A program made the position numbers and the translations under genes. Below the pieces are notes generated by a model, which saw only the letters and a program-made list of their open reading frames with translations, had not been told where the DNA came from and did no database searches. Of a stretch of 64,000 nucleotides of DNA, positions 3,132 through 50,776 are shown piece after piece (the stretch's first letter is position 1; each line of letters opens with the position of its first letter). Source of the DNA: an uncultured Methanosarcinales archaeon (GTDB lineage: Archaea > Nanobdellota > Nanobdellia > Woesearchaeales > DSVV01); the NCBI GenBank assembly GCA_964469935.1, contig CAYXZQ010000002.1:319-64318 (forward strand). Direction: 5' to 3'.

Positions 3132-3926
3132 TCAATCTGAGAGCAGCCTTCTCAGCTTCTTCAGGTTCTCCAGGTCCTCTGAAAGATTCAGAAAATCTGT
3201 CTTGGGAGTCTCGAGCGAAAGATAAGCACCCTCAGGTATCTGCCTGACAAGATCCCTCAGGGGCAGGTCTCCATCGCCCAGGTGCAGATGCTCGTCTACT
3301 TCTTTATCCTTACGGCTGTCGCTGAGATGGAACATATAAGGTCCTAAACCCAGAAAATCCCTGACAAAACCCATCATCTTCCTACCATGCGTATTCGATG
3401 CTGCAATCGCGTGGCCGATGTCAAGGCAGAATCTGCAGCCGGTCTTGTCCAGCACTTCCCTGTATTCTTCAGGCCTGGATATGACCAGAGGGATATTGTT
3501 CTCATAGCCGACCGCAGGCACGTTCTCAAGTATGATGTCAAGCTCAGGCATAAGCCCTTTTATGTTCATGACAAGGCTCTGGACTGTGTCCCTTTTTTTG
3601 TCCAGCACATAGCCGGGGTGGAAGATTATCTTATTTTTGCCGAAAAACTCGGTGAATCTTCTGATTGTCTTGATTGATTCATGATAAGTCATGTCCTTGT
3701 TCGTGATGCTGAAGCCGTGGTTGTAGTTCGGGGCGTGGAATATGACAGGAACATCCTTAAGGATCTCAAGCTTAACGCCGTCGAACGTGCCGGGCACGAT
3801 GTAGAGCTCGACATAATCTATCAGCCCATCACTTAAGAATTCGGCAAGCTTCGTAAAGGACTCCTGGTTGATTGACCATATCTTGAGCCCCAGCCTGACC
3901 CTTTTTTCCCCCATTTGCAGGCCCAT
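3132..3926 (-). CDS. Sugar phosphate isomerase/epimerase, xylose-isomerase-like TIM-barrel family.
   Basis: Length and motifs ('IIFHPGY', 'CLDIGHA', a His/Asp/Glu metal-ligand pattern) fit the AP-endonuclease-2 / xylose-isomerase-like TIM fold. The likely start is MGLQMGEK (alternative starts at 3950 or 3914). Confidence 0.55.
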   Translation of the reverse strand: MGLQMGEKRVRLGLKIWSINQESFTKLAEFLSDGLIDYVELYIVPGTFDGVKLEILKDVPVIFHAPNYNHGFSITNKDMTYHESIKTIRRFTEFFGKNKIIFHPGYVLDKKRDTVQSLVMNIKGLMPELDIILENVPAVGYENNIPLVISRPEEYREVLDKTGCRFCLDIGHAIAASNTHGRKMMGFVRDFLGLGPYMFHLSDSRKDKEVDEHLHLGDGDLPLRDLVRQIPEGAYLSLETPKTDFLNLSEDLENLKKLRRLLSD

Positions 3927-4606
3927 TATCCTATTTCTCTGACCAGGCACAGCGCTTCTGCCAGTTCCAGCCCTGATTCCAGCCCCCTGAACTGCGCCAG
4001 TATCCTTATGCCTTCAAGAGACCTGGGATGGGGATATTTCCGAAGCTCGCTCCTGTACGCCTTCATCGCCTTAAGCTTGTCATCCATCACTCCTGAGATA
4101 TCATAGTAGACATTCGGCCTGAAGACACCCTCGCCCTTCGACTGCCATTCTGTAGACGACAAAGTCTCGAAAGCATATATCTTTTTCACGCAATCCTTTC
4201 CGATCGGCCTAGCCGCTGTCATAGCAGCCTGGAAGCAGATCCTGTGGTCGACATTGAGGTCGTTCTCGTGATGGGTATAGATTATGTCGGGCTTCAGCCT
4301 GTCCATGACCTTCTCGAACCCCTTGACAACATCCAGCAACGGCACTGAATCCATTGCATTGTCAGGGAAGTCGAGGAAGAAGACCTCTTTGAATCCCAGT
4401 ATGTCAGCTGCATTGAGGCTCTCCTTTCGCAGTCTCTTGACATCTGCATCAGTTTTCTTCCCCTTCGCGAGCCGTGAAGTCACGCCCTCGGCAGCGATTA
4501 AGCAGTAGACATCATCACCCGACCTGGCATGCCTCAGGACTGTCCCGCCTATGCCCAATACCTCGTCATCCGGATGGGCAGCTATGACAAGAACCTTATT
4601 CTTCAT
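3926..4606 (-). CDS. PIG-L/LmbE-family N-acetyl-sugar deacetylase.
   Basis: The N-terminus 'VLVIAAHPDDEVLGIGGT' carries the HPDDE zinc-binding signature of the PIG-L family. There is also a conserved 'HxxH'-like region 'YTHHENDLNVDH'. Confidence 0.8.
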   Translation of the reverse strand: MKNKVLVIAAHPDDEVLGIGGTVLRHARSGDDVYCLIAAEGVTSRLAKGKKTDADVKRLRKESLNAADILGFKEVFFLDFPDNAMDSVPLLDVVKGFEKVMDRLKPDIIYTHHENDLNVDHRICFQAAMTAARPIGKDCVKKIYAFETLSSTEWQSKGEGVFRPNVYYDISGVMDDKLKAMKAYRSELRKYPHPRSLEGIRILAQFRGLESGLELAEALCLVREIG

Positions 4607-5321
4607 CTTCCATCACCCTGATCGTCACATGAGCCCTGACTTTCCCGTCCGAAAGCCTGGATCTGGTGAACTCCAGCCTGAGCCTGCCTGATTCGATGAA
4701 CGCAGGCGGATAGCCCTCTCCGTCGAGCATCCTTATCCAGTCATGGACCTTCGATATTGCTGCGTCGTCAGGAATCCTGCTCTCTTCCGGTGTCCTCCTC
4801 TTGAACTCCACTACCTCGCCCTCCTGCTTTTTCGGGGCTGGTCTGTCCCTGATGATCTCTGCCATCATCCGAAATATGATGTCAGAGGCTTTCCTGAATA
4901 TCTCTTCAGCGCTGCCGCTCGAAAGGTCGAGGTCCCTCTTCATGTATATGTCGCCTGCATCAAGCCCCTTCACGACCCTTATCGCCGATATCTTTGTCCT
5001 GTATATCCCTCTTGAGATGAGGTTCTGCAGCGGGCTTCCCCCTCTTCCGAACGGAAGGTCTGTCATGTGGAAGACCACGCACTCGAAATCCTCGTAGACA
5101 TCTTTCGGGATTATCCATGACCAGTGCGGGAAGAACACGTACGCGGGGTTCAGCTCCCTGAGCCTCTCGGATGTCAGGTCTTCCTTCTTGTCTATCAGTG
5201 TCCAGCTGAAGCTGTCGAGCTCCTTCTCGATCTTGTTGAAATTGCCGACATTCCATGACTTGATCGTCACGACTACCATGTTCTTCTTGTCGTCTGTCAT
5301 TGTCTCATTTGCCATGCTCAT
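4596..5321 (-). CDS. Formyltransferase-fold protein (Fmt/ArnA N-domain-like). Putative sugar N-formyl or N-acyl transferase.
   Basis: 'VVFHMTDLPFGRGGSPLQNLISRGIYRTKISAIRVVKGLDAGDIYMK' aligns with the formyl_trans_N core 'H.SLLP..RG..P......G....G.T.H.....D.GDI'. The usual Asn two residues before the catalytic His is Val/Phe here. Confidence 0.6.
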   Translation of the reverse strand: MSMANETMTDDKKNMVVVTIKSWNVGNFNKIEKELDSFSWTLIDKKEDLTSERLRELNPAYVFFPHWSWIIPKDVYEDFECVVFHMTDLPFGRGGSPLQNLISRGIYRTKISAIRVVKGLDAGDIYMKRDLDLSSGSAEEIFRKASDIIFRMMAEIIRDRPAPKKQEGEVVEFKRRTPEESRIPDDAAISKVHDWIRMLDGEGYPPAFIESGRLRLEFTRSRLSDGKVRAHVTIRVMEDEE

Positions 5322-5782
5322 CTTGCATACCTCAACTCGACAAATTCCCCGTGGTCCTTGTGCAGCTTGTATCCGCTCTTCTCGAACGCCCTTACAGATG
5401 CTATGTTCTCGTGCTTGATATTGGCGATGATGTACTGCACGTCGAAATTGTCAAGGTAGAACCTGGCGGATTCTTTCAGCACCCTGGTACCTATGCCCCT
5501 GCTCCTGGACTCCGGGGCGATTGCGATGTCTATCTCTGCATGCCTTCCCTCCCTGTCGAACCTCACCTGGCCGAGCTTGCTGCCTTTACTGTCAGTGACG
5601 ATGAACAAGTTCCTCTTCGGGTTTGAAAGCGAGCTGCCGAACCACTTTACATGGTCTTTCTTCTGCACCTTCTTGGTATTGAATGAGTACTTCCTCGTGA
5701 CCGGGTCGTTTCTCCATCTTAGAAGGTCTTCGGAATCCTCCGGCCCGGCGAACCTGAAATATATCTCGTCAGTCATCGGCAT
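5318..5782 (-). CDS. GNAT-family N-acetyltransferase (PseH-like role).
   Basis: It is 154 aa. 'RSRGIGTRVL' is the acetyl-CoA binding motif (R/Q-x-x-G-x-G/A). It is wedged between NeuB and formyltransferase-like genes with 4-14 nt overlaps. Confidence 0.7.
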   Translation of the reverse strand: MPMTDEIYFRFAGPEDSEDLLRWRNDPVTRKYSFNTKKVQKKDHVKWFGSSLSNPKRNLFIVTDSKGSKLGQVRFDREGRHAEIDIAIAPESRSRGIGTRVLKESARFYLDNFDVQYIIANIKHENIASVRAFEKSGYKLHKDHGEFVELRYAR

Positions 5783-6845
5783 CCCCCTCTCTTATCGGCT
5801 CCTGCAGGCCGATGTCCCTTGATGCTGTCTTGCCGAGAAGATCTTCATAACGGTCGGGCTCAAGCCCTTGCTCTTTTTTTCCCGGCCTGAGCACGCCGAT
5901 GTTCTCCTTCGTGAACCTATCCCCCTTCTTAATTGGCTTGATAGAATATATGAAATGCCTGGCAAAGCTGTGCAGCTCTTTTTCAGCATCGCCCACATGT
6001 TTTTCCCCTGAACCCAGCGCCTGCTCCAGCTTATGGATGCCCGAAACAAGCTCCTTAAGTTCATCAGGCAGTATCGCAAACCCGTGGTCCGGTCCCGGCA
6101 GGCTGTTGTCTGTTGTGAAATGCTTCTCGATTACAGATGCGCCGAGGGCTACTGCTCCAAGAGGGGCGATCAGCGGCTCCCTCGAGTGGTCAGACAGGCC
6201 GACAGGGCATCCGAATTCCTTCATCATCTCCGGTATGACGCTGAGGTTCATGGCTGACATGGGCGCAGGGTATTTTGCCGTGCACTGCAGAAGGATTATA
6301 TCTTCATTGCCGCATTTCCTTATGTAATCCGCTGCTTTTCTTACATCATCCATGTCCGATGCCCCTGTAGAGATTATCATAGGCTTGCCTTTCCCGGCTA
6401 CATGCTTGAGCAGCGGGAAGTCTGTTATGGAGTATGACGCGAGCTTGTAGGCCTCAATCCCCGCTTTCTCCAGCTCGTCGGCAGATGCATTGTCAAACGG
6501 CGTCGCAAGGAACATGATGCCCTTGTCGTCGCAATGCCCCTTCAGCTTCGGCAGCCATTCATAAGGAAGCTCCATCTCCCTGATTATGTCGTATATCTTC
6601 TTTTTCTTGCCTATGTAATCCGCGTGGCCAGCGTCCTTTACATACAGCTTCTCTGCGCGGTAGACCTGGAATTTAACAGCATCTGCCCCGGCTTCAGCAG
6701 CGATGTCGATCAATCTCAATGCCTGCTCATAATTCTTGACCGGGTCGTCGGATATCCTGAAATTCGCGCCAGCCTCGGCTATAAAGTAGCATGGCTCGCC
6801 TTTCCCAACAATTTTTTTCCCGATTCTTGTCTTGGTGTCGACCAT
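5769..6845 (-). CDS. NeuB-family nonulosonic acid synthase (N-acylneuraminate, pseudaminate or legionaminate synthase), copy 1, with a C-terminal SAF domain.
   Basis: The N-terminus 'GKGEPCYFIAEAGANF...AGADAVKFQV' matches the NeuB/PseI/LegI signature. The C-terminus 'RSLVAIKDI'-like SAF region is 'RHFIYSIKPIKKGDRFTKENIGVLRPG'. Confidence 0.8.
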   Translation of the reverse strand: MVDTKTRIGKKIVGKGEPCYFIAEAGANFRISDDPVKNYEQALRLIDIAAEAGADAVKFQVYRAEKLYVKDAGHADYIGKKKKIYDIIREMELPYEWLPKLKGHCDDKGIMFLATPFDNASADELEKAGIEAYKLASYSITDFPLLKHVAGKGKPMIISTGASDMDDVRKAADYIRKCGNEDIILLQCTAKYPAPMSAMNLSVIPEMMKEFGCPVGLSDHSREPLIAPLGAVALGASVIEKHFTTDNSLPGPDHGFAILPDELKELVSGIHKLEQALGSGEKHVGDAEKELHSFARHFIYSIKPIKKGDRFTKENIGVLRPGKKEQGLEPDRYEDLLGKTASRDIGLQEPIREGDADD

Positions 6846-6859
6846 ATGCCATCATCGCC

Positions 6860-7903
6860 TTATACAAACATGCCTTCTTCTAAAAATACGTCTTTTTTGA
6901 CATCAGTCCTGAGTCTCCTGCCAAGGAATTCCTCGTACCTGTCAGCTGTTATGCCTGTGCCCGGCCTCCTGAAATCCAGGTCCTCCAGTTTCAAGACTGC
7001 TCCTTTTTTGAGGTCCTTGATAGCCACAAGGCTCCTCCTTCCCGCAAGCCCGGGCCTGAGCGCGAACACGTCCTCCGGCTTTCCTACAGCCCTCTCTATC
7101 TTGCGGACATTCTCGACAAAACCCTTGAGCTCATGAGGCTCGAGAGACATGTAATGCTCGGCGCTCCTCGTGGTCTTGTCAAGGGTTATTGTCTTCTCGA
7201 TGCAGTCGGCTCCGAAGCCCATGCATGCGTAATCCATCAGGGCGTCGACCGAATGGTCGGAGAACCCGACAGGGCAGTCGAACCTGTCCTTGAGAAATTG
7301 GAGCACAGAGAAGTTTATCTCCTCGTCCCTGCAGGGGTAGCCCGGCGGGCAGTGCATTATCATGATATTGTCGTTCCCATTGCCCCTGCAGACGCTGACA
7401 GCCCTTTCCAGCTCTTCGAGGGTCCCCCTCGCGTCAAGTATGACAGGAAGGCCTGATTTTGCCGCATACCTGATGAGGAAGGTATGGTTTATGTCCGCTG
7501 CTGCAATCTTGATTGCGCATGAGCCGATCTCCTTCAGGAGCTCCACCTCTTCGGGGAAGAACGCGGTGGAGAAGAACAGGATGCCCAGCTCGTCGCAGTA
7601 CTCCTTTAGCTCCTTCCACTGCGCGACAGGAAGCTCCCTCCTCTTGAGTATGTCATATAATCTCTCTGTCACGTCGCCGTCAGCTGTCCCGTATGTGAAA
7701 TCCACGGACTTGTCGCCCATGAGCCTGTCGACGTCCATTATCTGGAACTTGACAGCATCCGCCCCTGAATCGGCAGCTGCCTTGCAGAGCCTCTTTCCGG
7801 ACTCGAGGTCGTATATGGTAGGTCCTGCCTCAAGCACGATGAAGCATGGCTCGCCTTCTCCGACTGTCCTGTTTCCTATCCTCAATTTCCTGGCTTTCTT
7901 CAT
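6860..7903 (-). CDS. NeuB-family nonulosonic acid synthase, copy 2 (paralog).
   Basis: 'GEGEPCFIVLEAGPT...SGADAVKFQI' and a C-terminal SAF-like 'RRSLVAIKDLKKGAVLKLEDLDFRRPG'. It is a distinct paralog, only partly alignable to copy 1. Confidence 0.8.
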   Translation of the reverse strand: MKKARKLRIGNRTVGEGEPCFIVLEAGPTIYDLESGKRLCKAAADSGADAVKFQIMDVDRLMGDKSVDFTYGTADGDVTERLYDILKRRELPVAQWKELKEYCDELGILFFSTAFFPEEVELLKEIGSCAIKIAAADINHTFLIRYAAKSGLPVILDARGTLEELERAVSVCRGNGNDNIMIMHCPPGYPCRDEEINFSVLQFLKDRFDCPVGFSDHSVDALMDYACMGFGADCIEKTITLDKTTRSAEHYMSLEPHELKGFVENVRKIERAVGKPEDVFALRPGLAGRRSLVAIKDLKKGAVLKLEDLDFRRPGTGITADRYEEFLGRRLRTDVKKDVFLEEGMFV

Positions 7904-8580
7904 TTTACTCTCCTGATTAGATATTCTGCCAGCTCGAGGTCGAAAGGCTCGTTTATGTCGACAGTCCTCTTCGGGGGTATGTAGTATCCCACTATCCTCT
8001 CGCCGTAGTATGTCCTGTCCTTCCTGAGCTGGGCTGCTCTTGCGAAAATTATGGAGCCGTCGTGGACAAAGACCTCGGGATTCTTCTGGTCCTGTGTCAG
8101 GTATTCCCTGCCGTAAAGCGGATTGAGAAACCCGTCGCCTCCCTTCTTGAGCGCCCTGAATGGTGAATACCTGTAGTCTGTTACGGACATGAGATAGTCA
8201 GCTCCTGAGGATTCGAACAGCTCGAATGCTTTCCTGATGTCATCACCGGCCCTCAGGGGGCTTGTCGGCAGCAGTATGCAGATTGCCTCTACGGCGAAGC
8301 CCTTCTTTTCATACTTTGATATGGCATCTATGCATACCTGCGGCACAGTCGCGTCGTCGCTTCCGAGCGCGACATCTCTAATAAGCACTTCAGCCCCTAG
8401 TCCTTCGGCGATACCTGCTATCTCTTCATCGTCTGTCGATACGACGATCCTGTCGAATATCGCTGCCTTTTCTGCAGCTTCCACTGCGTATTGGAGCAAT
8501 GGCTTCTTATCCAGAAGAGCTATGTTCTTCCTCGGGAACCTCTTCGAGCCTCCTCTTGCAGGGATTATTGCCATCAGCAT
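7900..8580 (-). CDS. CMP-nonulosonic acid synthetase (acylneuraminate cytidylyltransferase, NeuA/PseF/LegF family).
   Basis: 'AIIPARGGSKRFPRKNI' is the canonical CMP-NeuAc synthetase N-terminal motif. It is 226 aa. Confidence 0.85.
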   Translation of the reverse strand: MLMAIIPARGGSKRFPRKNIALLDKKPLLQYAVEAAEKAAIFDRIVVSTDDEEIAGIAEGLGAEVLIRDVALGSDDATVPQVCIDAISKYEKKGFAVEAICILLPTSPLRAGDDIRKAFELFESSGADYLMSVTDYRYSPFRALKKGGDGFLNPLYGREYLTQDQKNPEVFVHDGSIIFARAAQLRKDRTYYGERIVGYYIPPKRTVDINEPFDLELAEYLIRRVK

Positions 8581-8687
8581 GGCGCAGAGTATTGGATAAG
8601 CATTTAAATAAGTTATGAATTGCAGACTTTAACAGACATTAATAAAATATTTAAATGTTGATTATCAGGTCAAGTGAGGGTGATATA
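8581..8687. promoter_or_regulatory. Divergent promoter region between the CMP-sugar synthetase operon (-) and the amidotransferase operon (+). It has two TATA-like boxes and an SD-like GGTGA before the + start.
   Basis: The AT-rich block reads 'gcatttaaataagttatgaa' and 'aaaatatttaaatgttg'. 'gagggtgatataATG' sits ahead of MRYCARC. Archaeal TATA consensus is TTTAWATA. Confidence 0.45.
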
Positions 8688-9953
8688 ATGAGATATTGTG
8701 CAAGGTGCGTATATCCTGAGAATGCAAAGCCAGCTATAATCTTCGACGAAGAGGGTGTCTGCAGCGGATGCAGGCTTCACGAGTCGAGGCCAAAGATTGA
8801 CTGGGACAAGCAGATGGAAAAGCTCAAGGAGATCCTGAAGGAGTACAGCAAGAAAGCGAGGGCGAACGGGTCGAAATACGACTGCATCATTCCTGTCAGC
8901 GGAGGCAAGGACAGCCATTTCCAGACCTATGTGATAAAGAAGCTGCTCGGGTACAATCCGCTGCTCGTCTGCTATAACCACGGCTTCAATACAAAGAGGG
9001 GAATCAGGAATCTCACTAACATGACAACGCAGTTCGGTACTGACATCCTCAGGTTCACTACCAATCCCGAGAGCGCGAGAAAGCTATCGACGTTCATGGT
9101 AAAGAAGGTGGGCGACCTGACCTGGCATTACCATGCAGGCATAACCACCTTTCCCATCAAGGCCGCGGTGATGTACAGGATCCCACTAATCATCTGGGGC
9201 GAGCACGGGTTTTCCGACATGCTCGGCATGTACAACCAGGAAGACATGCTGGAGTTCTCAAAGAAGGACAGGAGGGACCACAGCATGAGGGGCTTTGAGC
9301 CCGACGACATACTGGAGGACCCGGAAAACCCGGGAATAACCGAAGACGACCTTGACCCCTTCTATTATCCCAGCAACGAGGATATCGAAAAGGTGGGCGT
9401 GAGGGGTATCTTCCTTGCGAATTTCGTCCCCTGGGATGCAAGGAAGCACACTAAGCTGATGATCGACAAGTTCAATTTCGAGACAGCCCAAAAGCGCGAG
9501 AGGACATTCCACCTCTATGACAAGCTGGACGACATCCATGCCAACGGAACGCATGATTACCTGAAGTACCTCAAGTTCGGGTACGGCAGGGCGACAGACG
9601 ATGCGTCCATGGAGATACGCCACGGAAGGATGACAAGGGAGGAGGGCATCGAGATGGTAAAAAAATACGACCACGTGAGGCCGAGCGACCTTGACATCTG
9701 GCTGAAGTTCGTGGGCTGGGACGAGAAGAAGTTCTTGGACATGATAGAGCCAATGCGTGACAGCTCGATATGGGAGAAGAAGAACGGTGTCTGGGTAGCA
9801 AAGGACAGCGTGGCAAATCATGTCCATGACAAGGGCGTTGAAAAGGCAAGGCTCAAGCTCAAAGAGGACAGGAAGCCCATCGCGCCTACGAAAAGCCCGT
9901 ATTACTCCCGGGACGACCATGTCGAGGAGGACAAGGAATACATCTGGTTATGA
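8688..9953 (+). CDS. N-acetyl-sugar amidotransferase (PP-loop ATPase, WbuX/AglX/PseA-like). Acetamidino group formation.
   Basis: N-terminal zinc ribbon 'MRYCARCVYP...CSGC'. PP-loop 'IIPVSGGKDSHFQ' (SGGxDS). Immediately followed by HisH- and HisF-like genes with overlapping stop/start. Confidence 0.75.
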   Translation: MRYCARCVYPENAKPAIIFDEEGVCSGCRLHESRPKIDWDKQMEKLKEILKEYSKKARANGSKYDCIIPVSGGKDSHFQTYVIKKLLGYNPLLVCYNHGFNTKRGIRNLTNMTTQFGTDILRFTTNPESARKLSTFMVKKVGDLTWHYHAGITTFPIKAAVMYRIPLIIWGEHGFSDMLGMYNQEDMLEFSKKDRRDHSMRGFEPDDILEDPENPGITEDDLDPFYYPSNEDIEKVGVRGIFLANFVPWDARKHTKLMIDKFNFETAQKRERTFHLYDKLDDIHANGTHDYLKYLKFGYGRATDDASMEIRHGRMTREEGIEMVKKYDHVRPSDLDIWLKFVGWDEKKFLDMIEPMRDSSIWEKKNGVWVAKDSVANHVHDKGVEKARLKLKEDRKPIAPTKSPYYSRDDHVEEDKEYIWL

Positions 9954-10573
9954 TGATAGCCATCATCGACTACGGGGCGAGCAACCTCAGGTCGGTCGCC
10001 AATGCCCTGGAGGCACTTGGCACTGAATTTTTCATATGCTCTGACCCTTCAGACCTGCCGAAGGCTGACGGCATGATCCTGCCCGGGGTGGGCGCGTTTG
10101 CCGACGGCATGGGCAAGCTTGAGAGGATGGGGATGAAGGATGCCCTGGAATCCGAGGTATTGGAAAAGAAGAAGCCTTATCTCGGGATATGCCTCGGCAT
10201 GCAGTTCCTCGGGGAAGAGAGCGAGGAGCACGGTCTTTGCAGGGGATTCGGCTGGATGAAGGGCCGGGTGAGGAAGATTAAGCACGTGGACGGCTTCAAG
10301 ATCCCTCACATGGGCTGGAACGACACCGAGCTCAGGGAGGACGTGCCGATATTTTCCGGCCTCGGTAAAAGCGGGGTATTCTATTATGTCCACAGCTATT
10401 TCTTTGATGCCGAGGAGAAAGATACGATAATCGCCACCACGTTCCATGCAGAGAAGCTGATCGCCGGGGTGCAGAAGGGCAACATCATAGGGGTCCAGTT
10501 CCACCCGGAAAAGAGCCAGGGCGCAGGGTTGATGCTCCTGAAGAATTTCGTAAGGTTCGTGAAAGATGGTTAA
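9950..10573 (+). CDS. Glutamine amidotransferase subunit, HisH-like (WbuY/AglY-like).
   Basis: 'MIAIIDYGASNLRSV', 'LPGVGAF', catalytic Cys in 'GICLGMQ' and 'VQFHPEKS' make the class-I GATase triad, as in imidazole glycerol phosphate synthase HisH. Confidence 0.8.
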   Translation: MMIAIIDYGASNLRSVANALEALGTEFFICSDPSDLPKADGMILPGVGAFADGMGKLERMGMKDALESEVLEKKKPYLGICLGMQFLGEESEEHGLCRGFGWMKGRVRKIKHVDGFKIPHMGWNDTELREDVPIFSGLGKSGVFYYVHSYFFDAEEKDTIIATTFHAEKLIAGVQKGNIIGVQFHPEKSQGAGLMLLKNFVRFVKDG

Positions 10574-11351
10574 GAACAGGCTCATAGCGTGCCTTCTCTG
10601 GAAGGACGGAATACTCGTGCAGAGCAGGAATTTCAGGCATACCAATGCAGTGGGCAACGCTTTTGTCGCTGTCGAGTTCTTCAACAACTGGGCGATCGAC
10701 GAGATAGTCATACTCAACGTGACCAGGGGGGGCCCGGAAAAGGAGAAGTTCGTGGATTCCATAAATGAGATCTCCAAGAGATGCTTTGTTCCGCTAAGCG
10801 TAGGCGGGTTCATAGATTCAGTCAAGGATATCAGGCTGCTTCTCGCATCAGGGGCGGACAAGGTGGTCATCAACACCATGGCATTCAGGAACAACAGCCT
10901 GGTGACCGAAGGGGCGAAAATGTTCGGGAGCCAGTGTATAGTCGTCTCCATCGATGCAAAGGGTGACGAGGTGTATGTTGCACAGGGATCAGAGGCTACA
11001 GGGCTGAAACCTGCCGCCTGGGCAAAGAGATGCGAGGAGCTCGGCGCAGGCGAGATATTCCTCACTTCTATCGAGCAGGACGGGCAGGGGAAGGGATATG
11101 ATCTTAAATTGATAGGCGAGGTTGCGGAAGCGGTCAGCATCCCTGTAATCGCATCAGGCGGAGTGGGGGAATGGAAGCATTTTGTCGAAGGCATAAAGGC
11201 CGGAGCTGATGCTGTGTCTGCAGCGAACATCTTCCATTATTCAGATCAGAGCACGAAGAAGGCAAAGAATTACATGAAGGAAGCGGGAATAGACGTGAGA
11301 GAGCCTGTATTCTATGACATAAAGACCCCGAGGCGCCCCAGGTATTTCTGA
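10566..11351 (+). CDS. Cyclase subunit, HisF-like (WbuZ/AglZ-like).
   Basis: 'RLIACLLWKDGILVQS', 'VPLSVGGFI', 'GADKVVINT' and 'IPVIASGGVG' form the HisF (beta/alpha)8 signature. It overlaps the HisH-like gene by 8 nt. Confidence 0.8.
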   Translation: MVKNRLIACLLWKDGILVQSRNFRHTNAVGNAFVAVEFFNNWAIDEIVILNVTRGGPEKEKFVDSINEISKRCFVPLSVGGFIDSVKDIRLLLASGADKVVINTMAFRNNSLVTEGAKMFGSQCIVVSIDAKGDEVYVAQGSEATGLKPAAWAKRCEELGAGEIFLTSIEQDGQGKGYDLKLIGEVAEAVSIPVIASGGVGEWKHFVEGIKAGADAVSAANIFHYSDQSTKKAKNYMKEAGIDVREPVFYDIKTPRRPRYF

Positions 11352-11385: not shown

Positions 11386-12513
11386 TCAGAAGAATTCCTT
11401 TATACTGGTGATTATCGTATCAGTTTCCTCATCTGTGAGCCCCGGATAGATGGGTATGCTCAGTATCCTGCCGTAGAATTCCTCTGCTCTCGGGCAGAGC
11501 CCCCTTTCGTAACCGAGTCCCTGGTACAAAGGATGGAGGTACACGGGGATGTAGTGCACCTGGCAGTTTATACCGCTTTTCGACAGGTGCTCGAAAAGGC
11601 CGAGCCTCTTTTTTGGTGTGTCAAGCATTATGATGAATAGATGATATGCATGGGTCCGGTCATTCGGAACTCCGATGAGCTCTATCTCCCTGACCGGTCC
11701 GAGCTCTTTTTGATACTTCCCGGCAATCTTTTGCCTGTCCCTGATGAACCTTTCTGCCTTGGTCAGCTGTCCCAGGCCGAGCGCGCACTGGATGTCAGTC
11801 AGTCTGTAGTTGTACCCGAGCTCCTGGATCTCATGATACCATGGGCCGTCGGGCCTGCCCACAAATTCTTTCGGCTCCTTTGTGATGCCGTGGTTCCTGA
11901 GCTTTTTCAGCCTCTTGTAAATCTTTTCCGAATTGGTCGTTATCATGCCGCCTTCCCCGGTTGTCATGAGCTTGACAGGATGGAAGCTGAATGTGCACAT
12001 GTCAGAGTGCCTGCAATCCCCTATCCTTGAGCCTTTGTACTCTGCCCCTAGCGCGTGGGAGCAGTCCTCTATGACTGTGAGGCCGTGCTTTTTAGCGATA
12101 GCTGAGATTTGCTCCATGTTGCACGGAAGTCCTGCAAGATGCACGGGTATGAGAGCCCTGGTCTTCTTGGTTACAGATTTTTCGACCTCTTCAGGGTTTA
12201 TCAGGCCGTGCTTGTCGATATCGGCGAACACCGGCCTTGCCCCGCAGTAAAGCGCGCAGTTTGCGCTGGCGGCAAATGTTATCGGCGATGTTATGACCTC
12301 CCCTCCCTTCACGCCCGCCGCCAGGCAGGCCAGGTGCAGGGCTGCGGTGCCGTTGCTGACAGCGACTGCGAACCTGGCTCCGACAAACTCCGCGAACCTC
12401 TTCTCGAACCTGTCCACAAGCGGTCCTGTTGTCAAAAAATCGCTCCTGAGCACGTCTGATACTGCCTTTATGTCATCTTCGCCGATTGTCTGCCTGCCAT
12501 AGTTGATCGCCAT
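11386..12513 (-). CDS. DegT/DnrJ/EryC1/StrS-family PLP-dependent sugar aminotransferase (PseC/LegC-like).
   Basis: 'NGTAALHLACLAAG' and 'CTFSFHPVKLMTTGEGGMITT' (PLP-lysine motif SFHxxK) in a 375-aa protein. Confidence 0.85.
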   Translation of the reverse strand: MAINYGRQTIGEDDIKAVSDVLRSDFLTTGPLVDRFEKRFAEFVGARFAVAVSNGTAALHLACLAAGVKGGEVITSPITFAASANCALYCGARPVFADIDKHGLINPEEVEKSVTKKTRALIPVHLAGLPCNMEQISAIAKKHGLTVIEDCSHALGAEYKGSRIGDCRHSDMCTFSFHPVKLMTTGEGGMITTNSEKIYKRLKKLRNHGITKEPKEFVGRPDGPWYHEIQELGYNYRLTDIQCALGLGQLTKAERFIRDRQKIAGKYQKELGPVREIELIGVPNDRTHAYHLFIIMLDTPKKRLGLFEHLSKSGINCQVHYIPVYLHPLYQGLGYERGLCPRAEEFYGRILSIPIYPGLTDEETDTIITSIKEFF

Positions 12514-13812
12514 TCATACAACACCCTTGGACTTTGCGAAATCGCCTATCATCTTCTGGTAATGCCCCTTGTTCTCAAGGACCTTTGGAAAAGTTCTGTA
12601 GCGTGACCTGAAAAAATCGTATTTCCTGATGAAAGGCAGGTACAGTATCATGTAATGGACCATGTTGAATATCACAGTGTTGAGATACAGTCCAGGAGAA
12701 AAGCGCCTCTTCTTAGGCTTGTTCTTCTTCAGGAAACTGTCTATCTTCCGGGCTGTCCGAAACCCGTTCAGACCGTCCAGGTATTCCGATTTCATGCGGA
12801 CGAACCCTTTCCTGAACCCCGACCTGTCGTCGAATGCCTTGATATGTCCATACCTGTAGAATTCGTCGATGTAGGACTGAAGCTCCCCGATGCTGCCTGC
12901 GATGACATTCCCCTCGTGCATCCTGCTATACCATTTGCTGTAGTCCTCTGCCTCGGGGACGACCTGGATGACGGGCTTGCCGAGTATCCACGACTCGACA
13001 GATGTTGTGCTGTCATACACCAGCCAGATGTCTGAGACGTTTATGAGGTCGTAGATGTTCTCCTCGTACTGCATGACGATTGCGTTGTCCAGCTCCGACC
13101 ATTCGTCCAGGATCTCGAGGACCCCTGGCAGGAGGCCCGGATGCTTCTTGAAGATGAACAGGATGTCGGGATTGTCGGCCAGGGCCCTTCCGAGAACGTC
13201 CCTGACGAACTCCAGGTCGAGCTTCCTGCGCTCGACCTCCTCATCTGAATATTCAAAGGGATTCGTCTCCCTTCTTTTCTCGTCGACGAAATAGCTGAAG
13301 TTCCAGCCGGCATAGGTCAAGACCTTGCTGAATCTCGTCTTGCCGTATTTTTTCAGGAGCGTCTTCTTGTCCTTGTATTTCATCCACCTGTACTTGTCAA
13401 AGCCCACTGCCCCTGACACGTCTATCACTCCCTTGTAATCCGGGCAGTCGGCAAGGACGTCTTCTTTTATCTTCCTGTTCCAGACAAACCTCAGGTCGAC
13501 GTTCATCTCCCTCCTGGTGTTGTAGCCCCAGAATGTGTCGAGGACCTGGGACTCGTGGTTGGACTCTGCGCTCAGCGAGACCGTGGTCATTCCGAGTCTC
13601 TTTGCGTACCTGGCGAACATGACCGCGTAAAAATCCCCGTTCGCGTCGGTGAGAAGGAGATATTTCGGCCTGTGCCTGAAGAGGGCGTGCAGGTCGAAAT
13701 GAGGGACGACCTTGACAGAATAACCCCCTCTCTCGAGATAGTACATCACGTTGTACAGGACAAGGGTGTCCCGCTCGACGTATCCCACCTGCGGAACGAG
13801 GATGTCCACCAT
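12514..13812 (-). CDS. TagF/TagB-like CDP-alcohol (glycerol/ribitol-phosphate) phosphotransferase family protein. It may instead be a related GT-B capsule/nonulosonic-acid transferase.
   Basis: 'IFKKHPGLLPG' (KxHP motif) and 'IYDLINVSDIWLVYDSTTSVESWILGKPVIQV' resemble the Glyphos_transf catalytic core ('D...LITDYSS...E...KP.I'). Confidence 0.45.
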   Translation of the reverse strand: MVDILVPQVGYVERDTLVLYNVMYYLERGGYSVKVVPHFDLHALFRHRPKYLLLTDANGDFYAVMFARYAKRLGMTTVSLSAESNHESQVLDTFWGYNTRREMNVDLRFVWNRKIKEDVLADCPDYKGVIDVSGAVGFDKYRWMKYKDKKTLLKKYGKTRFSKVLTYAGWNFSYFVDEKRRETNPFEYSDEEVERRKLDLEFVRDVLGRALADNPDILFIFKKHPGLLPGVLEILDEWSELDNAIVMQYEENIYDLINVSDIWLVYDSTTSVESWILGKPVIQVVPEAEDYSKWYSRMHEGNVIAGSIGELQSYIDEFYRYGHIKAFDDRSGFRKGFVRMKSEYLDGLNGFRTARKIDSFLKKNKPKKRRFSPGLYLNTVIFNMVHYMILYLPFIRKYDFFRSRYRTFPKVLENKGHYQKMIGDFAKSKGVV

Positions 13813-13813
13813 T

Positions 13814-14863
13814 TTACAAGAGTCCCTGGCTCCGGAAGAAATCCTCGGCCTCGTCCCTGCTGATGAGATTGTCCTTCGAGCTGTATTCGTCCATGTCCTT
13901 CTCTGTCATCTTCCTGCCCTTGAAATAAGCAGGCTTCCTGTCGTCTATATACTTCTCTATCTGCGATACTATGATGTAGTTTCCCTTGTATTCGTACGTC
14001 CTGGGCACTTCGCTGGAGTTGATCATCACCTCATGGAGCTTCTCGCCGGGTCTTATGCCGATTACCTCCACGCTGTTTTTGCTCCTGTTCTTGGATTTGA
14101 GTATGTCGATAAGGTCTATTATCCTGAAGGAAGGCAGTCTCGGGACAAAGACCTCCCCTCCTCGGCCTGTCTCGAATGCGTCGAATATGAGCTTGACAGC
14201 CTGCTCAGGGGTGATGATGAAGCGCGTCATGCGCTCGTCGGTCAGGGGTATCTTGTCCCCGTTCCTTATCTTCTCCTCGAAGAACGGGATGACAGAGCCG
14301 GTGCTCTCAAGCACGTTGCCGTACCTCACGCAAAGGAACCTGGTCGGGCACGTGCCCTTGTTGTAATTGCTCTCGATGAATATCCTCTCGCCGACGAACT
14401 TTGATGCCCCGTAGGTATTCACGGGAGAGCATGCCTTGTCAGTCGAGACGAAGACGGCTTTCTCGACCCTGTTTGCGAGGCATGCATTGACCACGTTGAG
14501 CGTGCCGAGGATGTTTGTCTTGATCGATTCCTCCACATTGTACTCGATCATGTCCAGCCTCTTCAGGGCTGCGGCATGGATGACGATGTCTGCGTCCCGC
14601 ATGGCCTTGTGCAGCCTCTCATAATCCCTCACGTCTCCTATCAGGTTCCTGAGCCTCGGGTCATTGCCGAAAAGCTCCTGGGTTCTGTGATGCTTGACCT
14701 CGTCCCTGGAAAAGAGCCTGATGCTCTGGGGCTTTTGCTTGAGCAGCTCTTTTGTCAGGGCGATCCCGAGATATCCCGTGCCCCCTGTTATCAGTATGGT
14801 CTTGTCCTTGAAAATCTTGCTCGCCTCCGGCCGGATATGTATGGAAACAGTGCCCGTCTCCAC
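13814..14863 (-). CDS. UDP-N-acetylglucosamine 4,6-dehydratase (CapD/PseB/LegB family SDR).
   Basis: 'ILITGGTGYLG' Rossmann motif. 'STDKACSPVNTYGASK' matches the CapD/FlaA1 catalytic S-Y-K region. It is 349 aa. Confidence 0.85.
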   Translation of the reverse strand: METGTVSIHIRPEASKIFKDKTILITGGTGYLGIALTKELLKQKPQSIRLFSRDEVKHHRTQELFGNDPRLRNLIGDVRDYERLHKAMRDADIVIHAAALKRLDMIEYNVEESIKTNILGTLNVVNACLANRVEKAVFVSTDKACSPVNTYGASKFVGERIFIESNYNKGTCPTRFLCVRYGNVLESTGSVIPFFEEKIRNGDKIPLTDERMTRFIITPEQAVKLIFDAFETGRGGEVFVPRLPSFRIIDLIDILKSKNRSKNSVEVIGIRPGEKLHEVMINSSEVPRTYEYKGNYIIVSQIEKYIDDRKPAYFKGRKMTEKDMDEYSSKDNLISRDEAEDFFRSQGLL

Positions 14864-14940: not shown

Positions 14941-16473
14941 TCATGTCCTGAATATGAGGCCCGGGTCGAGCCTGGAAATGTTTGTCCAGATGTCCCTTAC
15001 AAAGATCTTGTACAGCATCGAGATGACCTTTGTCTTCCTGTCGACATAAAAGAGGAGCGGGATGTTCAGTATGCAGAATATCACGTATTTCACAGCCGGC
15101 ACGACGAACGATGCGAGGCCTTCGCCTGCGGAATAGTCGAAGAGGCCGAGCACGTAGAAGAGCAGCGCCATGTAGGCGAAAGGGAAAACGTACATGCCTG
15201 TGGATTTGAGAATGTCCGGGACATTGAATCTCAGCGTCTTCAGGGTGTAGAAGCAGAAAATGAAGAACTCGATGAGATAGGCGATAAGCGTAGCGAGCGC
15301 GACGCCCAGGAGGCCGTAGCCCTGGCTGATGTATATTATGTTGAGGACCAGCACGAAAGCGATCATCATGGTCCTTATGGCGATGATGTTCCATTCGAAG
15401 TTTATCGAGATCAGAAAATTCGTTATCGGGATCTTGGCTGATGCGAAGAAGGCGGCAAACATAAGGATGTACACTATAGGGATCGCGGGTATGTATTTTG
15501 GGACAAAAAAGTTCACGAACGGGTTCAGGAAGAAGAATGCGCCTGCGATGATGAAGGGAATGGAGTAGGCTATGACCGTTGTGGGCACCAGTATGTAGTT
15601 CTTCATCTTCGAGTATGAGTTCCACCTGCCGTACGCCTCGATCTGTCTCGGGAACATGACGCCACCTATGGCCTGCGGTATGTAGCCGACTATCTCGATG
15701 ATGAACACCGCAAAGCCGTAGTATCCCAGCAGGGTCGTTGTGTAGAACCTTATCACCATCCATTTGTCGACTGTCAGGAAGGCTGTGGATATTATGTATA
15801 CCAGGGCAGGGAGGATGCCTGATTTTATCATGAGTGTCAGCGCCTTTTTTCTCATGTTCTTCGGGCTGAAGCTGAATTTATAAGGGGCGATGACGAGTCC
15901 TGTAACCGTTGTTATGATGTATGATATTATGAATGCCGCAAGGACGCCGTCGAGCCCGTATGGTCCGGCCAAAAGCAGCACGAGGATGAGCTTGCTTGCC
16001 GAGAGGACGACATTGAGGATGCCCGCTGCCCAGAATTTCTTGTCGATCCTGAGGAAATTGAGCTGGAAGAAGTTGAAGTGCTGGAAGAGGATGATTGCGG
16101 AGAGCAGCCTCAGCCCTGTCAGGGTCTCATGGCTGTAGTTGAGGATGAATGAGCTGATGAAGGCTCCGACAGCTATCAGGAGCATGATGTAGAACGTCGG
16201 GCCGAAAGTGAGGTCCCTGACCTCCTGGATCTCCTTGTCGCTCCTGCCCCTTCCCCTTATGAAGGGTATCCTCTTGTAGCTTGCGGAGTACAGCGGAAGG
16301 AACGCGAACCTGGTGTATTCGAGCACCAGCATGAGCGCCGAGTACAGCCCGAACAGCGAGACAGAAAGCTGCTTTAGGAGATAGGTCGTGGTGATCACGA
16401 CAAGAAAGAACGACGTGTACTTGCATACAGAGAACACGACCGTATCCTTGATTATCGAATGTTCCTCGCCCAT
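14941..16473 (-). CDS. Wzx-like oligosaccharide/polysaccharide flippase (MOP superfamily).
   Basis: 510 aa, roughly 12-14 predicted hydrophobic helices, no soluble domain. A TATA-like 'tttttata' lies about 30 nt upstream of the ATG. Confidence 0.65.
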   Translation of the reverse strand: MGEEHSIIKDTVVFSVCKYTSFFLVVITTTYLLKQLSVSLFGLYSALMLVLEYTRFAFLPLYSASYKRIPFIRGRGRSDKEIQEVRDLTFGPTFYIMLLIAVGAFISSFILNYSHETLTGLRLLSAIILFQHFNFFQLNFLRIDKKFWAAGILNVVLSASKLILVLLLAGPYGLDGVLAAFIISYIITTVTGLVIAPYKFSFSPKNMRKKALTLMIKSGILPALVYIISTAFLTVDKWMVIRFYTTTLLGYYGFAVFIIEIVGYIPQAIGGVMFPRQIEAYGRWNSYSKMKNYILVPTTVIAYSIPFIIAGAFFFLNPFVNFFVPKYIPAIPIVYILMFAAFFASAKIPITNFLISINFEWNIIAIRTMMIAFVLVLNIIYISQGYGLLGVALATLIAYLIEFFIFCFYTLKTLRFNVPDILKSTGMYVFPFAYMALLFYVLGLFDYSAGEGLASFVVPAVKYVIFCILNIPLLFYVDRKTKVISMLYKIFVRDIWTNISRLDPGLIFRT

Positions 16474-16569: not shown

Positions 16570-17517
16570 TTAATTTAGGTTTTTGTATTGTTCCAGACCT
16601 GTTGTTATGGACGAATATCCCTGTTCGAAGAAGGCTTCGTCCTGTTCAAGGAGGCTAATGTATCTTTCCGCGTACTCAGAGGCCTTGGAATTGCCGTTGG
16701 TCACATAGGCATGCAGTGCCTTGACGCTTTCACAGAAACCTGCAGGTATTAGCGAATCAAGGACACTTAATATCGCCATTCCGAATCCCACCTCGTTCAG
16801 CACTGTCTTGTCAGGGTTTTGGATCTCATACAGGTCCCTGTCAATAAGGTTGTCTGTCGCATCAGCCAGGAGCGCTATCGCATGCGCAGGGTCGCCATAC
16901 CTGCTGATATTGTAAATCCTTGAGCTCCGCTTGTACCTCTTGATGGTACATTCATCCAGGATGGCTGCTATGTCGGGATCATCCAGCCTCTTCATGATAT
17001 TCAGGGGCGTCGTATGGATAAGGGCGGACTCGTGAGCGAGCCTGCTATCCTGTGTCGTGCCGTTCTCCCGGAGATGTGTCAGCAGGAGGATGTAATTGTT
17101 GCCGAAGCCCTCGTCCAAGAAATCATGGTTTATCACCGACGTCATCGAACTGTCATAGATCGGATCGTCATGGTCGAGCAGTTCGCCGAGGATCATGCTG
17201 GACCTGTACGGATGTATCGAGTAAGGCCGTTTCAATCCGTATTTGTCAGGATAGTCCCTTTTCGTCTTGCTGAGGCACTGGATATTGGTTATCAGGTCCT
17301 CTATGTGATGGGCAGAGAATATCCTTTCTTTGCCTGAATTTGATATTTTTGCCAGCCACCCCTTCATGGCTTTCTCATATTTCAGAAAACGCTCATGGTG
17401 TGACGGCACTTTCAGGCCATTGTTGAGCATCAGGTCATAATGATACAGGACCGCCAGGAAGTTCTCTTCCTGTATCCTGAGCCAGTCGATAAAATCAGCC
17501 GCTTCCATCCTTATCAA
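16570..17517 (-). CDS. Hypothetical protein (315 aa). No recognisable motif. It sits inside the glycan operon between the flippase and GT4.
   Basis: Soluble, Asp/Glu/His-rich. No Rossmann, P-loop, GT or sulfotransferase PSB signature was recognisable by eye. Position implies a glycan-modifying role. Confidence 0.4.
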   Translation of the reverse strand: MIRMEAADFIDWLRIQEENFLAVLYHYDLMLNNGLKVPSHHERFLKYEKAMKGWLAKISNSGKERIFSAHHIEDLITNIQCLSKTKRDYPDKYGLKRPYSIHPYRSSMILGELLDHDDPIYDSSMTSVINHDFLDEGFGNNYILLLTHLRENGTTQDSRLAHESALIHTTPLNIMKRLDDPDIAAILDECTIKRYKRSSRIYNISRYGDPAHAIALLADATDNLIDRDLYEIQNPDKTVLNEVGFGMAILSVLDSLIPAGFCESVKALHAYVTNGNSKASEYAERYISLLEQDEAFFEQGYSSITTGLEQYKNLN

Positions 17518-37472: not shown

Positions 37473-37556
37473 TGTCGACTGGAAAAAACCGGAATTAAAA
37501 ACATTTTCGATGCACCATCCACAACCTTTATTAACTGTACAAGGATTACTGGACTT

Positions 37557-44277: not shown

Positions 44278-44427
44278 GGGGGCGTAGTTTAACCTGGCTA
44301 GAATAACTGGCTCCAGTGCTCTGGAGCGATGAGGGGAAGCGATTTCCCGATGACTTTAGGTCTGGTATGGCTCTTTTTTAAGGGCGAGAGATACCAGTTG
44401 ATCTGGGTTCAAATCCCAGCGTCCCCA
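44278..44427 (+). tRNA. tRNA-Trp (anticodon CCA) interrupted by a ~76-nt intron at the canonical 37/38 position (about 44317-44392).
   Basis: Acceptor GGGGGCG pairs with CGUCCCC (one G-U pair). U8 is present. D-arm GUUU/AACCUGGCUA/GAAU. Anticodon stem ACUGG/CCAGU. The anticodon loop C-U-C-C-A-G|intron|A is the canonical tRNA-Trp loop CUCCAGA. The T-arm is CUGGG-UUCAAAU-CCCAG and the discriminator is A. Confidence 0.6.
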
Positions 44428-50698: not shown

Positions 50699-50776
50699 GT
50701 CAAGGGTTCACGGAACCTATAGGGTTTATCCGTGCATTTCCGGAACTGCGAGAGCTGTACTGCTGATATCGATCTT

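Follow-up and report, generated by a model that had tools for sequence, protein, structure and literature searches.

Two NeuB-family proteins in the nonulosonic acid cluster of a DPANN archaeon, one from a clade with an apparently rebuilt active site

Introduction

Nonulosonic acids (NulOs) are surface decorations of both pathogenic and environmental microbes, and NulO synthases have been treated as a uniform, strictly metal-dependent family. Why, then, would one operon carry two of them side by side? The question is raised by a 64,000-nt stretch of archaeal DNA from contig CAYXZQ010000002.1 (assembly GCA_964469935.1), called the window here; coordinates are positions within it, and loci and proteins compared with it carry L and P numbers. 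Between positions 3132 and 11351 a minus-strand operon encodes two NeuB-family proteins, NeuB-1 (5769-6845) and NeuB-2 (6860-7903), and a divergent plus-strand operon encodes a WbuX-type amidotransferase with HisH-like and HisF-like partners. An initial annotation read this region as a complete NulO pathway, judged the adjacent NeuB genes unusual, and proposed that they might yield one pseudaminic acid (Pse) type and one legionaminic acid (Leg) type product, or a NulO and a related keto-sugar. All gene functions discussed below are assigned from sequence.

The region is a NulO cluster and its WbuX-type amidotransferase is genuine, as the initial annotation had recognized, and all ten of its annotated open reading frames (ORFs) are present with their domain assignments confirmed in Pfam and NCBIfam. 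NeuB-2 belongs to a sub-clade, designated T2, that departs from two active-site features described as fully conserved. T2 proteins account for roughly one in three of the 150 best-scoring NeuB-family clusters and are always accompanied by a normal synthase in the loci examined, properties that point to an unrecognized step or product in NulO biosynthesis. An even chance is given here to the reading that the locus is a DPANN-type N-glycosylation core making a CMP-activated, N-modified, Pse-type NulO, with NeuB-2 serving as an active second synthase.

Two NeuB proteins with different active sites

NeuB-1 and NeuB-2 share 33% identity. Both carry NeuB (PF03102) and SAF (PF08666) domains above the gathering scores (294.2 and 34.8 in NeuB-1; 219.0 and 42.3 in NeuB-2), and both score below the equivalog cut-offs of NeuB/NnaB TIGR03569 (326.7 and 248.2, respectively, vs 399.65) and PseI TIGR03586 (288.2 and 207.1 vs 340.25). 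The closest genome is the 1.84-Mb chromosome of a 'Ca. Woesearchaeota' metagenome-assembled genome (MAG; OY970338.1, locus L001), which repeats the arrangement of the window gene for gene. Both NeuBs are full length and under purifying selection relative to their L001 orthologues (dN/dS 0.11 for NeuB-1 and 0.12 for NeuB-2), as are all cluster genes shared by the two genomes.

NeuB-1 is a His-type NulO synthase of an SpsE-like subfamily found mainly in DPANN and Candidate Phyla Radiation (CPR) genomes. Its best solved relative is Bacillus subtilis SpsE (PDB 1vli, 295 bits), the legionaminic acid synthase of the sps pathway (PMC7439481). The canonical site for metal and phosphoenolpyruvate (PEP) is intact (H220, H242, S137, S159, and S218), and the equivalent of Arg314 is kept. 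The Glu134 position is Ser, with Ser or Thr there in 90 of 120 homologues, and a six-residue loop, FRISDD, is inserted after the EAGAN motif. Several NeuB-1 homologues are fused to GNAT domains (P0128, P0136, P0215, P0220).

The active site of NeuB-2 is constructed differently. In bacterial and mammalian enzymes His215 and His236 are Mn ligands, while Ser132, Ser154, and Ser213 bind the PEP phosphate, and all are described as fully conserved (PMC11339185). NeuB-2 fails this canonical site: H217 and S215 are kept, but alignment with Neisseria meningitidis NeuB places Thr238 at His236, Asp157 at Ser154, and Ala135 at Ser132, with Asp137 at Glu134 and Glu249 at Asp247. Across 120 NeuB-2 homologues (43-91% identity), T238, D137, D157, the E249-H250 pair, and a CP(S/P)GYP motif show little or no variation. 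The same homologues keep the PEP-carboxylate lysines, K52 and K132, and the equivalents of Gln, Tyr, and Arg314 (roles in PEP and sugar binding after PMC11339185). Over 50 T2 sequences of 43-70% identity, 32 columns are invariant, and E25, H217, and E236 are also kept. Because the substitutions persist across homologues, the T2 site does not reflect decay.

NeuBs without the second histidine form one clade, T2, in a neighbour-joining (NJ) tree (bootstrap 175/200), and NeuB-1 falls outside it; the only references in this tree are four sequences reconstructed from PDB alignments, and LegI, Escherichia coli NeuB, NANS, and Legionella pneumophila ORF 9 are not among its members. When T2 was defined by the motif EKT alone, its members did not form a single group in this tree; adding two EKS/EKP variants gave the 175/200 clade. 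Placement of both copies had been proposed in the initial annotation, for which a shared clade with one degraded copy would have counted as refutation; the two are instead intact proteins in different clades. On these alignments NeuB-2 did not arise by a recent duplication and is no pseudogene; it represents a distinct, old clade whose metal and phosphate site appears to have been rebuilt.

When 1.84 billion cluster representatives (50% identity clusters) were searched with a profile, 5,391 NeuB-family representatives matched at E < 1e-30. About 45-55 of the best 150 lack the histidine, a count made by motif, since no clean score gap separates T2 from His-type NeuBs in the search. T2 members occur in Elusimicrobiota, Planctomycetota, Anaerolineae, Nitrospirota, CPR bacteria, Aenigmatarchaeota, and Magnetococcia, and also in the cultured Chromobacterium phragmitis, Chitinivorax, Andreprevotia, and Paraburkholderia. 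None was found on plasmids (tblastn of NeuB-2 against PLSDB, at most 34% identity), and an exact search for NeuB-2 in the assembly index gave no entry. The searchable literature yielded no description of the clade; one large phylogeny of NeuB notes E134D and has nothing on His236 (PMC8208679).

A constant partner for the T2 clade

Partner genes were counted within 10 kb on either side of the gene. All T2 loci that span 6.9 kb or more, 14 in addition to the window, contain a His-type NeuB as well. Among independent T2 loci of at least 12 kb the partner is found in 11/11, against 3/27 His-type-centred loci that hold two NeuBs (Fisher p = 3e-7). The adjacent NeuB genes that had been considered unusual are therefore the rule for T2, and the tandem pair is a recurrent module, not a duplication. 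The partner is mostly PseI-like; the window has an SpsE-like one, and Chromobacterium one of the E134D NeuB type. Loci L090 and L091 contain the NeuB-1 operon without T2, which makes T2 an accessory insertion and not a core component.

The usual bacterial order is pseB-pseC-T2-pseF-(hisH-hisF-wbuX)-pseG-pseH-NeuB (L015-L018, L095). T2 adjoins a CMP-transferase gene in 11 of 20 tabulated loci and also in L092 and L093, and the two are fused in P0006; canonical synthases too can be fused to a CMP-transferase (P0172). Other T2 fusions involve a GFO/IDH/MocA oxidoreductase, an aldo-keto reductase, or a ferredoxin. A specific link between T2 and the pair GFO_IDH_MocA plus class-III aminotransferase was considered and abandoned, as these genes also occur in 10 and 6 non-T2 loci, respectively. 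Locus L095 lies in the complete genome of a cultured bacterium (C. phragmitis CP029554.1, 7847-16325) and reads pseB-pseC-T2-pseF-pseG-like-NeuB(E134D type)-hexapeptide acetyltransferase-WbqC-methyltransferase-PIG-L, which would make it tractable for work on T2. The function of T2 is thus directly testable in Chromobacterium by knockout and enzyme assay.

The residue at position 135 divides T2 into subtypes with different neighbours. Downstream of K135 proteins an APH-family kinase gene follows directly in 8/8 loci (L006, L007, L008, L010, L011, L013, L093, L094), often followed by a PAPS_reduct PP-loop protein, and this correlation suggests a phosphorylated ligand for the K135 subtype. No APH kinase adjoins the T2 genes with Ser135 or Ala135, although L074 has one two genes downstream. 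Ser135 proteins are those found in the Pse-operon strings. The combination of Ala135 and Pro187 occurs in the window, L001, and L092, and in all three the T2 and CMP-transferase genes are divergent from WbuX-HisH-HisF. The window contains no homologues of the T2-associated APH kinase, PAPS_reduct, DHDPS, or PseG genes.

The main rival to an active second synthase is that T2 does not condense PEP and instead modifies the NulO of its partner before CMP activation, either by C4 epimerization through a retro-aldol/aldol reaction or by some other alteration of the keto-acid end; a product-like molecule would then occupy the pockets that formerly bound the PEP carboxylate and the sugar. We regard this as unlikely, yet it would account for the constant partnership (11/11 vs 3/27, p = 3e-7), for the diversity of partners, and for the loss of the phosphate site. 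PseI-like, SpsE-like, and E134D-type partners fit a need for any NulO and not for one lineage, and a modifying enzyme could dispense with Ser154 and His236 and retain carboxylate- and sugar-binding residues. The position of T2 directly beside the CMP-transferase gene and the DHDPS/NAL-family aldolase gene ahead of T2 in L006 and L094 point the same way. The kinase that always follows the K135 subtype is harder to reconcile with this proposal, as it suggests a phosphorylated ligand and not a plain NulO, and Asp157 could be a replacement metal ligand. To our knowledge, no non-synthase activity occurs in the NeuB family.

Canonical NeuB is a domain-swapped dimer, and NeuB-2 could accordingly be a non-catalytic protein that forms a heterodimer with canonical NeuB or a scaffold for the amidotransferase or CMP-transferase. 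The loss of a metal ligand reported as fully conserved and the co-occurrence of canonical NeuB throughout would suit such a role. A dead enzyme, however, would hardly keep E25, K52, Q54, K132, D137, D157, H217, E236, T238, E249, and H250 invariant across phyla, the partners are phylogenetically heterogeneous, and the T2 gene often does not lie next to the partner gene. A non-catalytic NeuB-2 is considered very improbable.

A probable Pse-type pathway without PseG

Read 5' to 3', the minus-strand operon encodes a CMP-transferase, NeuB-2, NeuB-1, a GNAT protein, a formyltransferase-like (Fmt-like) protein, a PIG-L protein, and a TIM-barrel protein. Neighbouring stops and starts overlap by 4-25 bp, as had been described, except that the two NeuB genes lie 14 bp apart. 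The first gene (7900-8580) encodes a PseF-like CMP-NulO synthetase (CTP_transf_3, 83.9 bits) and overlaps the NeuB-2 gene by 4 bp, while the PseH-like GNAT N-acetyltransferase (Acetyltransf_3, 62.8 bits) is encoded at 5318-5782. Beyond the divergent operon, also on the minus strand, lie genes for a PseC aminotransferase (11386-12513) and a PseB-like UDP-GlcNAc 4,6-dehydratase (13814-14863; Polysacc_synt_2, 304.5 bits). The dehydratase, aminotransferase, and 2-epimerase genes predicted nearby are all there; their placement 3-11 kb further on does not hold for PseC, whose gene begins 35 bp past the HisF-like stop.

PseC passes its equivalog model (TIGR03588, 483.9 bits vs 423.5). The best matches of three other proteins are Pse equivalogs that they fail to reach: PseB (TIGR03589, 356 vs 407.75), PseH (TIGR03585, 53.7 vs 93.1), and PseF (TIGR03584, 170.2 vs 205.7). 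No PseG was found among 20 proteins scanned against NCBIfam (1-20.5 kb, with some ORFs unscanned; Pfam only beyond 20.5 kb), and tblastn with the PseG of L009 against the 64-kb window gave nothing at E < 1. The BFO_1060-family glycosyltransferase was considered as a PseG and not accepted, the GT-B-like local match being weak (E = 0.007). A hydrolysing NeuC/LegG epimerase is likewise absent: the sole Epimerase_2 protein scores 97.7 against NeuC TIGR03568 (cut-off 235.9). This protein, encoded at 18768-19880 on the minus strand, is a non-hydrolysing UDP-GlcNAc 2-epimerase of the WecB type (TIGR00236, 421.3 vs 210) and not a NulO-pathway epimerase. The pathway is thus not complete in the sense first proposed.

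The cluster (1-20 kb) holds one dehydratase/aminotransferase set, which is Pse-type, and one CMP-transferase. This inventory bears on the proposal that the two NeuBs make unrelated NulOs in parallel from separate precursor branches, whether Pse and Leg or a NulO and a keto-sugar. Such branches might be read into the 33% identity of the NeuB copies and into the duplicated genes of some T2 loci (two PseB-like genes in L005; two DegT genes in L018 and L025). A single PseB-like and a single PseC protein, the lack of a NeuC/LegG-type epimerase in the cluster, and a lone CMP-transferase give no sign of a Leg branch, and in many T2 operons the genes form one string, pseB-pseC-T2-pseF-pseG-pseH-pseI (L016, L017, L095). 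Parallel branches are judged improbable. Together with the dead scaffold subunit they rank as less likely, because the window has no second precursor set and the catalytic-site residues are invariant.

The last gene of the operon offers a candidate for the missing hydrolase. It encodes a xylose-isomerase-like TIM-barrel protein (3132-3950, minus strand; AP_endonuc_2 PF01261, 53 bits) with weak matches to deoxyribonuclease IV and to MJ1311 (PDB 3wqo), and its place at the end of the NeuB-1 operon is conserved in DPANN archaea. The gene adjoins NeuB in L041, L090, L091, L092, and L093, none of which has a true PseG. L090 (Nanoarchaeota) and L091 (Woesearchaeota) share the skeleton CMP-transferase-NeuB1-GNAT-(Fmt-like-PIG-L)-TIM with PseB/PseC-like genes and no PseG. 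Among the fetched loci, no locus has both the TIM-barrel gene (6 loci and the window) and a true PseG (16 loci); because the PseG profile, once iterated, also picked up GT4 and Epimerase_2 proteins, matches below about 280 bits were dropped. This mutual exclusion makes the protein, by elimination, a candidate nucleotide-sugar hydrolase, and we infer that it might be a non-orthologous replacement of the UDP-sugar hydrolase PseG. Given this distribution in related loci, a function other than that of the isomerase first suggested is more likely.

The predicted acetamidino-forming triad

The two operons diverge from a spacer of 107 bp (8581-8687) with 30% GC, vs 51% for the window, in agreement with the shared AT-rich region of roughly 100 bp and the divergent layout reported before. 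The spacer contains two TTTAAAT boxes (8603-8609 and 8650-8656) that resemble archaeal TATA boxes, and GGTGA at 8679 precedes the WbuX ATG at 8688. It is a putative divergent promoter region.

WbuX, an N-acetyl sugar amidotransferase and PP-loop ATPase (8688-9953, plus strand), was scored against TIGR03573 as the initial annotation had proposed. It passes with 330.7 bits (cut-off 203.2) over profile positions 1-343 of 344 and carries the PP-loop motif SGGKDS at residues 71-76. The alignment begins at residue 12 of a longer ORF that opens at 8655, supporting the start at 8688. Identity to the L001 orthologue is 98.6% (dN/dS 0.03). The HisH-like glutaminase in the WbuY role (9950-10573, plus strand) passes TIGR01855 (229.5 vs 105.4) with an intact Cys-His-Glu triad (GICLGMQ, FHPE).

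The third member falls short of every model: the HisF-like barrel (10566-11351, plus strand) is closest to WbuZ (TIGR03572, 255.5 vs 299.7) and scores below AglZ (NF038364, 205.7 vs 310) and HisF (231.2 vs 294.55). Its cyclase Asp11 is replaced by Leu (CLLW), and the Asp130 equivalent is retained. Without Asp11 it is not a histidine-biosynthesis HisF, and this loss, with the operon context, supports a predicted WbuZ/AglZ role as ammonia channel. Taken together, the triad is an unremarkable further example of a system already known.

WbuX-type genes occur in the NulO clusters of L. pneumophila and Campylobacter jejuni, and PtmG converts CMP-Leg5Ac7Ac to CMP-Leg5Am7Ac (PMC3766260). WbuX is found in 7/11 T2 loci vs 7/27 controls (p = 0.06), and where present it lies at most 3.7 kb from T2.

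The PIG-L and formyltransferase-like genes

Two further genes of the minus-strand operon suggest a change of N-acyl group. One encodes a PIG-L/LmbE-family de-N-acetylase (3926-4606; PF02585, 105.6 bits), the other a probable sugar N-formyltransferase (4596-5321; Formyl_trans_C_2 PF21553, 79.7 bits) that matches PDB 1zgh with 290 bits. The match of the latter to Formyl_trans_N is weak (24.1 vs the gathering score of 26.1); the His (FHMTDLPFGRG) and Asp (LDAGD) are retained, and the catalytic Asn position is Val. PIG-L orthologues of 44-50% identity occur in NulO loci L006, L015, L019, L075, and L082, and in L006 the gene adjoins an Fmt-like gene.

In L090 (12886-14291) genes for 5-formyl-tetrahydrofolate (formyl-THF) cyclo-ligase and FolD lie between the PIG-L and TIM-barrel genes of the NulO operon and resemble a private formyl-THF supply for the Fmt-like enzyme. 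Folate genes beside the Fmt-like/PIG-L pair argue that the Fmt-like protein uses formyl-THF and that the NulO is N-formylated. In a Methanosarcinales MAG (L004, 9956-11725) a 589-aa protein combines a NeuB domain with an Fmt-like domain, the latter a homologue of 4596-5321, and this fusion links synthase with formyltransferase. An archaeal precedent for an N-formyl NulO is the 5-N-formyl-Leg of Halorubrum (PMC6137143).

Proposed route and the role of NeuB-2

Family membership suggests the following route. The PseB-like dehydratase and PseC would produce UDP-4-amino-4,6-dideoxy-L-AltNAc, which would be acylated at N4 by the GNAT protein or, alternatively, by the Fmt-like enzyme. The nucleotide would be removed by an enzyme other than PseG, the AP_endonuc_2 TIM-barrel protein being the candidate, after which NeuB-1 would join the free sugar to PEP and the PseF-like enzyme would add CMP. 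WbuX, the HisH-like glutaminase, and the HisF-like channel would convert an N-acetyl to an acetamidino group, while PIG-L and the Fmt-like enzyme would exchange N-acetyl for N-formyl. A BFO_1060-type transferase and AglB would finally place the sugar on glycoproteins. The gene content indicates that DPANN archaea may put N-formyl and acetamidino NulOs on N-glycans through a pathway without PseG.

In the favoured reading NeuB-2 would be an active second ulosonate synthase, paired with the adjacent CMP-transferase, and would draw on the same hexosamine pool to make a variant NulO that differs in N-acyl state or C4 stereochemistry. This reading is preferred because T2 has retained the pockets for the carboxylate and the sugar and because its fusions and gene neighbours resemble those of synthases. 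The full length of NeuB-2, its dN/dS of 0.12, the 32 invariant columns, and the 175/200 clade bootstrap speak for a functional T2, and the passing scores of WbuX, PseC, WecB, HisH, and the BFO_1060 transferase speak for the function of the cluster.

Several observations weigh on the other side. T2 lacks His236 and Ser154, and it is never seen without a His-type NeuB (11/11), which is not expected of a free-standing synthase. The cluster has one CMP-transferase and one dehydratase/aminotransferase set. PseH, PseF, PseB, and both NeuBs score under their equivalog cut-offs, which leaves PseC as the chief support of the Pse-type label. That the TIM barrel would replace PseG is proposed from a complementary distribution over few loci.

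A broader proposal is more tentative: T2 might be a new type of NulO enzyme, either a synthase whose re-engineered metal/phosphate site takes another donor or a phosphorylated or charged acceptor, or a product-modifier dependent on the partner synthase, with the TIM barrel replacing PseG in a DPANN version of the route. If so, many bacteria and DPANN archaea, including this one, would make an undescribed NulO derivative or stereoisomer.

Comparison with known systems

The cluster is a further Pse-type NulO/acetamidino system, here in a DPANN archaeon. As in the Pse pathway of C. jejuni and Helicobacter pylori (PseB-PseC-PseH-PseG-PseI-PseF, with PseA), an equivalog-grade PseC and PseB-, PseH-, PseI-, and PseF-like genes cluster with a WbuX/PseA-type amidotransferase. 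The window differs in having no PseG and in the sub-cut-off scores of PseB, PseH, PseF, and both synthases; it adds a T2 NeuB, the PIG-L/Fmt-like pair, the TIM-barrel gene, and HisH- and HisF-like partners. Its host is an archaeon with AglB and not a bacterium with flagellin Maf transferases.

The lipopolysaccharide locus of L. pneumophila (Leg5Am7Ac) shares a NulO cluster, acetamidino formation, and a second neuB-family gene, ORF 9, which lies beside the PtmH-like methyltransferase ORF 8 in a locus with NeuABC and a PtmG-like amidotransferase (PMC3766260). It differs in its legionaminic backbone and NeuC-type epimerase. ORF 9 may be a precedent for T2.

E. coli O145 WbuX/Y/Z and Methanococcus maripaludis AglX/Y/Z likewise combine a PP-loop amidotransferase, a HisH glutaminase, and a HisF-like barrel. 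Those systems act on FucNAc or ManNAc3NAcA, whereas the substrate in the window is likely a NulO, and the barrel in the window scores under both equivalog cut-offs. The 5-N-formyl-legionaminic acid pathway of Halorubrum sp. PV6 (PMC6137143) also concerns a NulO of archaeal N-glycans, with a putative N-formyltransferase and adjoining N-glycosylation genes. That pathway, in contrast, follows the Leg scheme (LegB, C, H, G, I, F); its LegG resembles NeuC, and it has one synthase and no amidotransferase triad.

Both NeuBs of the window share the TIM barrel, the SAF/AFP-like domain, and the Arg314 equivalent with the solved synthases 1xuu (N. meningitidis NeuB), 8h2c (C. jejuni-type PseI), and 1vli (SpsE). 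They depart from them at Thr/His236, Asp/Ser154, Asp/Glu134, Ala/Ser132, and Glu/Asp247 in NeuB-2, and at Ser/Glu134 and the six-residue insertion in NeuB-1. The cluster is set apart by the T2 paralog, with its rebuilt site and constant partner, by the absence of PseG together with a conserved TIM-barrel candidate, and by the PIG-L/Fmt-like exchange module.

Host setting and neighbouring genes

The window reads as archaeal, given an apparent intron-containing tRNA and TATA-like promoter boxes. The tRNA is a 150-nt match at 44278-44427 on the plus strand (Rfam RF00005, 47.6 bits) that was not called by ARAGORN and is presumably an intron-containing archaeal tRNA.

Between the PseC and PseB-like genes a BFO_1060-family glycosyltransferase is encoded (12514-13812, minus strand; NF046086, 298.7 vs 200), probably a CMP-NulO transferase; Capsule_synth-like proteins occupy equivalent positions in L005, L007, and L091. 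Next on the minus strand is a very hydrophobic 510-aa protein (14941-16473), a putative glycan flippase or polymerase on the strength of its hydrophobicity, with no family match in Pfam or NCBIfam; Polysacc_synt proteins of similar size are present in L090 and L091. Past PseC and PseB the minus strand encodes two unassigned proteins, a GT4 glycosyltransferase, WecB, and a DUF2304/GT2 pair. A 315-aa soluble protein at 16570-17517 (minus strand) has no Pfam or NCBIfam match and, among the examined loci, is kept only in L001.

Beyond the cluster lie genes for a GDP-mannose dehydratase, more glycosyltransferases, methyltransferases, an adenosine 5'-phosphosulfate (APS) kinase, and two AglB/STT3 proteins. 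With two AglB genes and many glycosyltransferase genes around it, the NulO cluster is the biosynthetic core of an N-glycosylation island. One AglB/STT3 oligosaccharyltransferase, encoded at 31192-34452 on the minus strand, is fused to a peptidyl-prolyl isomerase (PPIase; STT3 145.6 bits, Rotamase 71 bits) and is the likely final user of the glycan; the second STT3 gene is at 46927-49383. The PPIase of the fusion is C-terminal and parvulin-type. A Woesearchaeota relative (L091, 16033-19383) has STT3 with a cyclophilin-type PPIase, and two different PPIase families have thus been fused to the oligosaccharyltransferase.

The island also contains an APS kinase gene and a CysQ-like gene of the inositol-monophosphatase family (50108-51571, minus strand); along with sulfotransferase genes in L006 and L090, this pair hints at sulfated glycans. 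At 3-1940, on the plus strand, an unusual gene that is kept in L001 fuses a Zn-type alcohol dehydrogenase domain to an oxidoreductase domain of the GFO/IDH/MocA type; a GT4 gene follows closely downstream, and the fusion gene flanks the NulO operon. Elsewhere in this archaeal, DPANN-like window, a full RelA/SpoT-type ORF (37440-39473, plus strand) comprises HD_4, RelA_SpoT, TGS, and ACT domains. Long RelA/SpoT homologues are uncommon in archaea.

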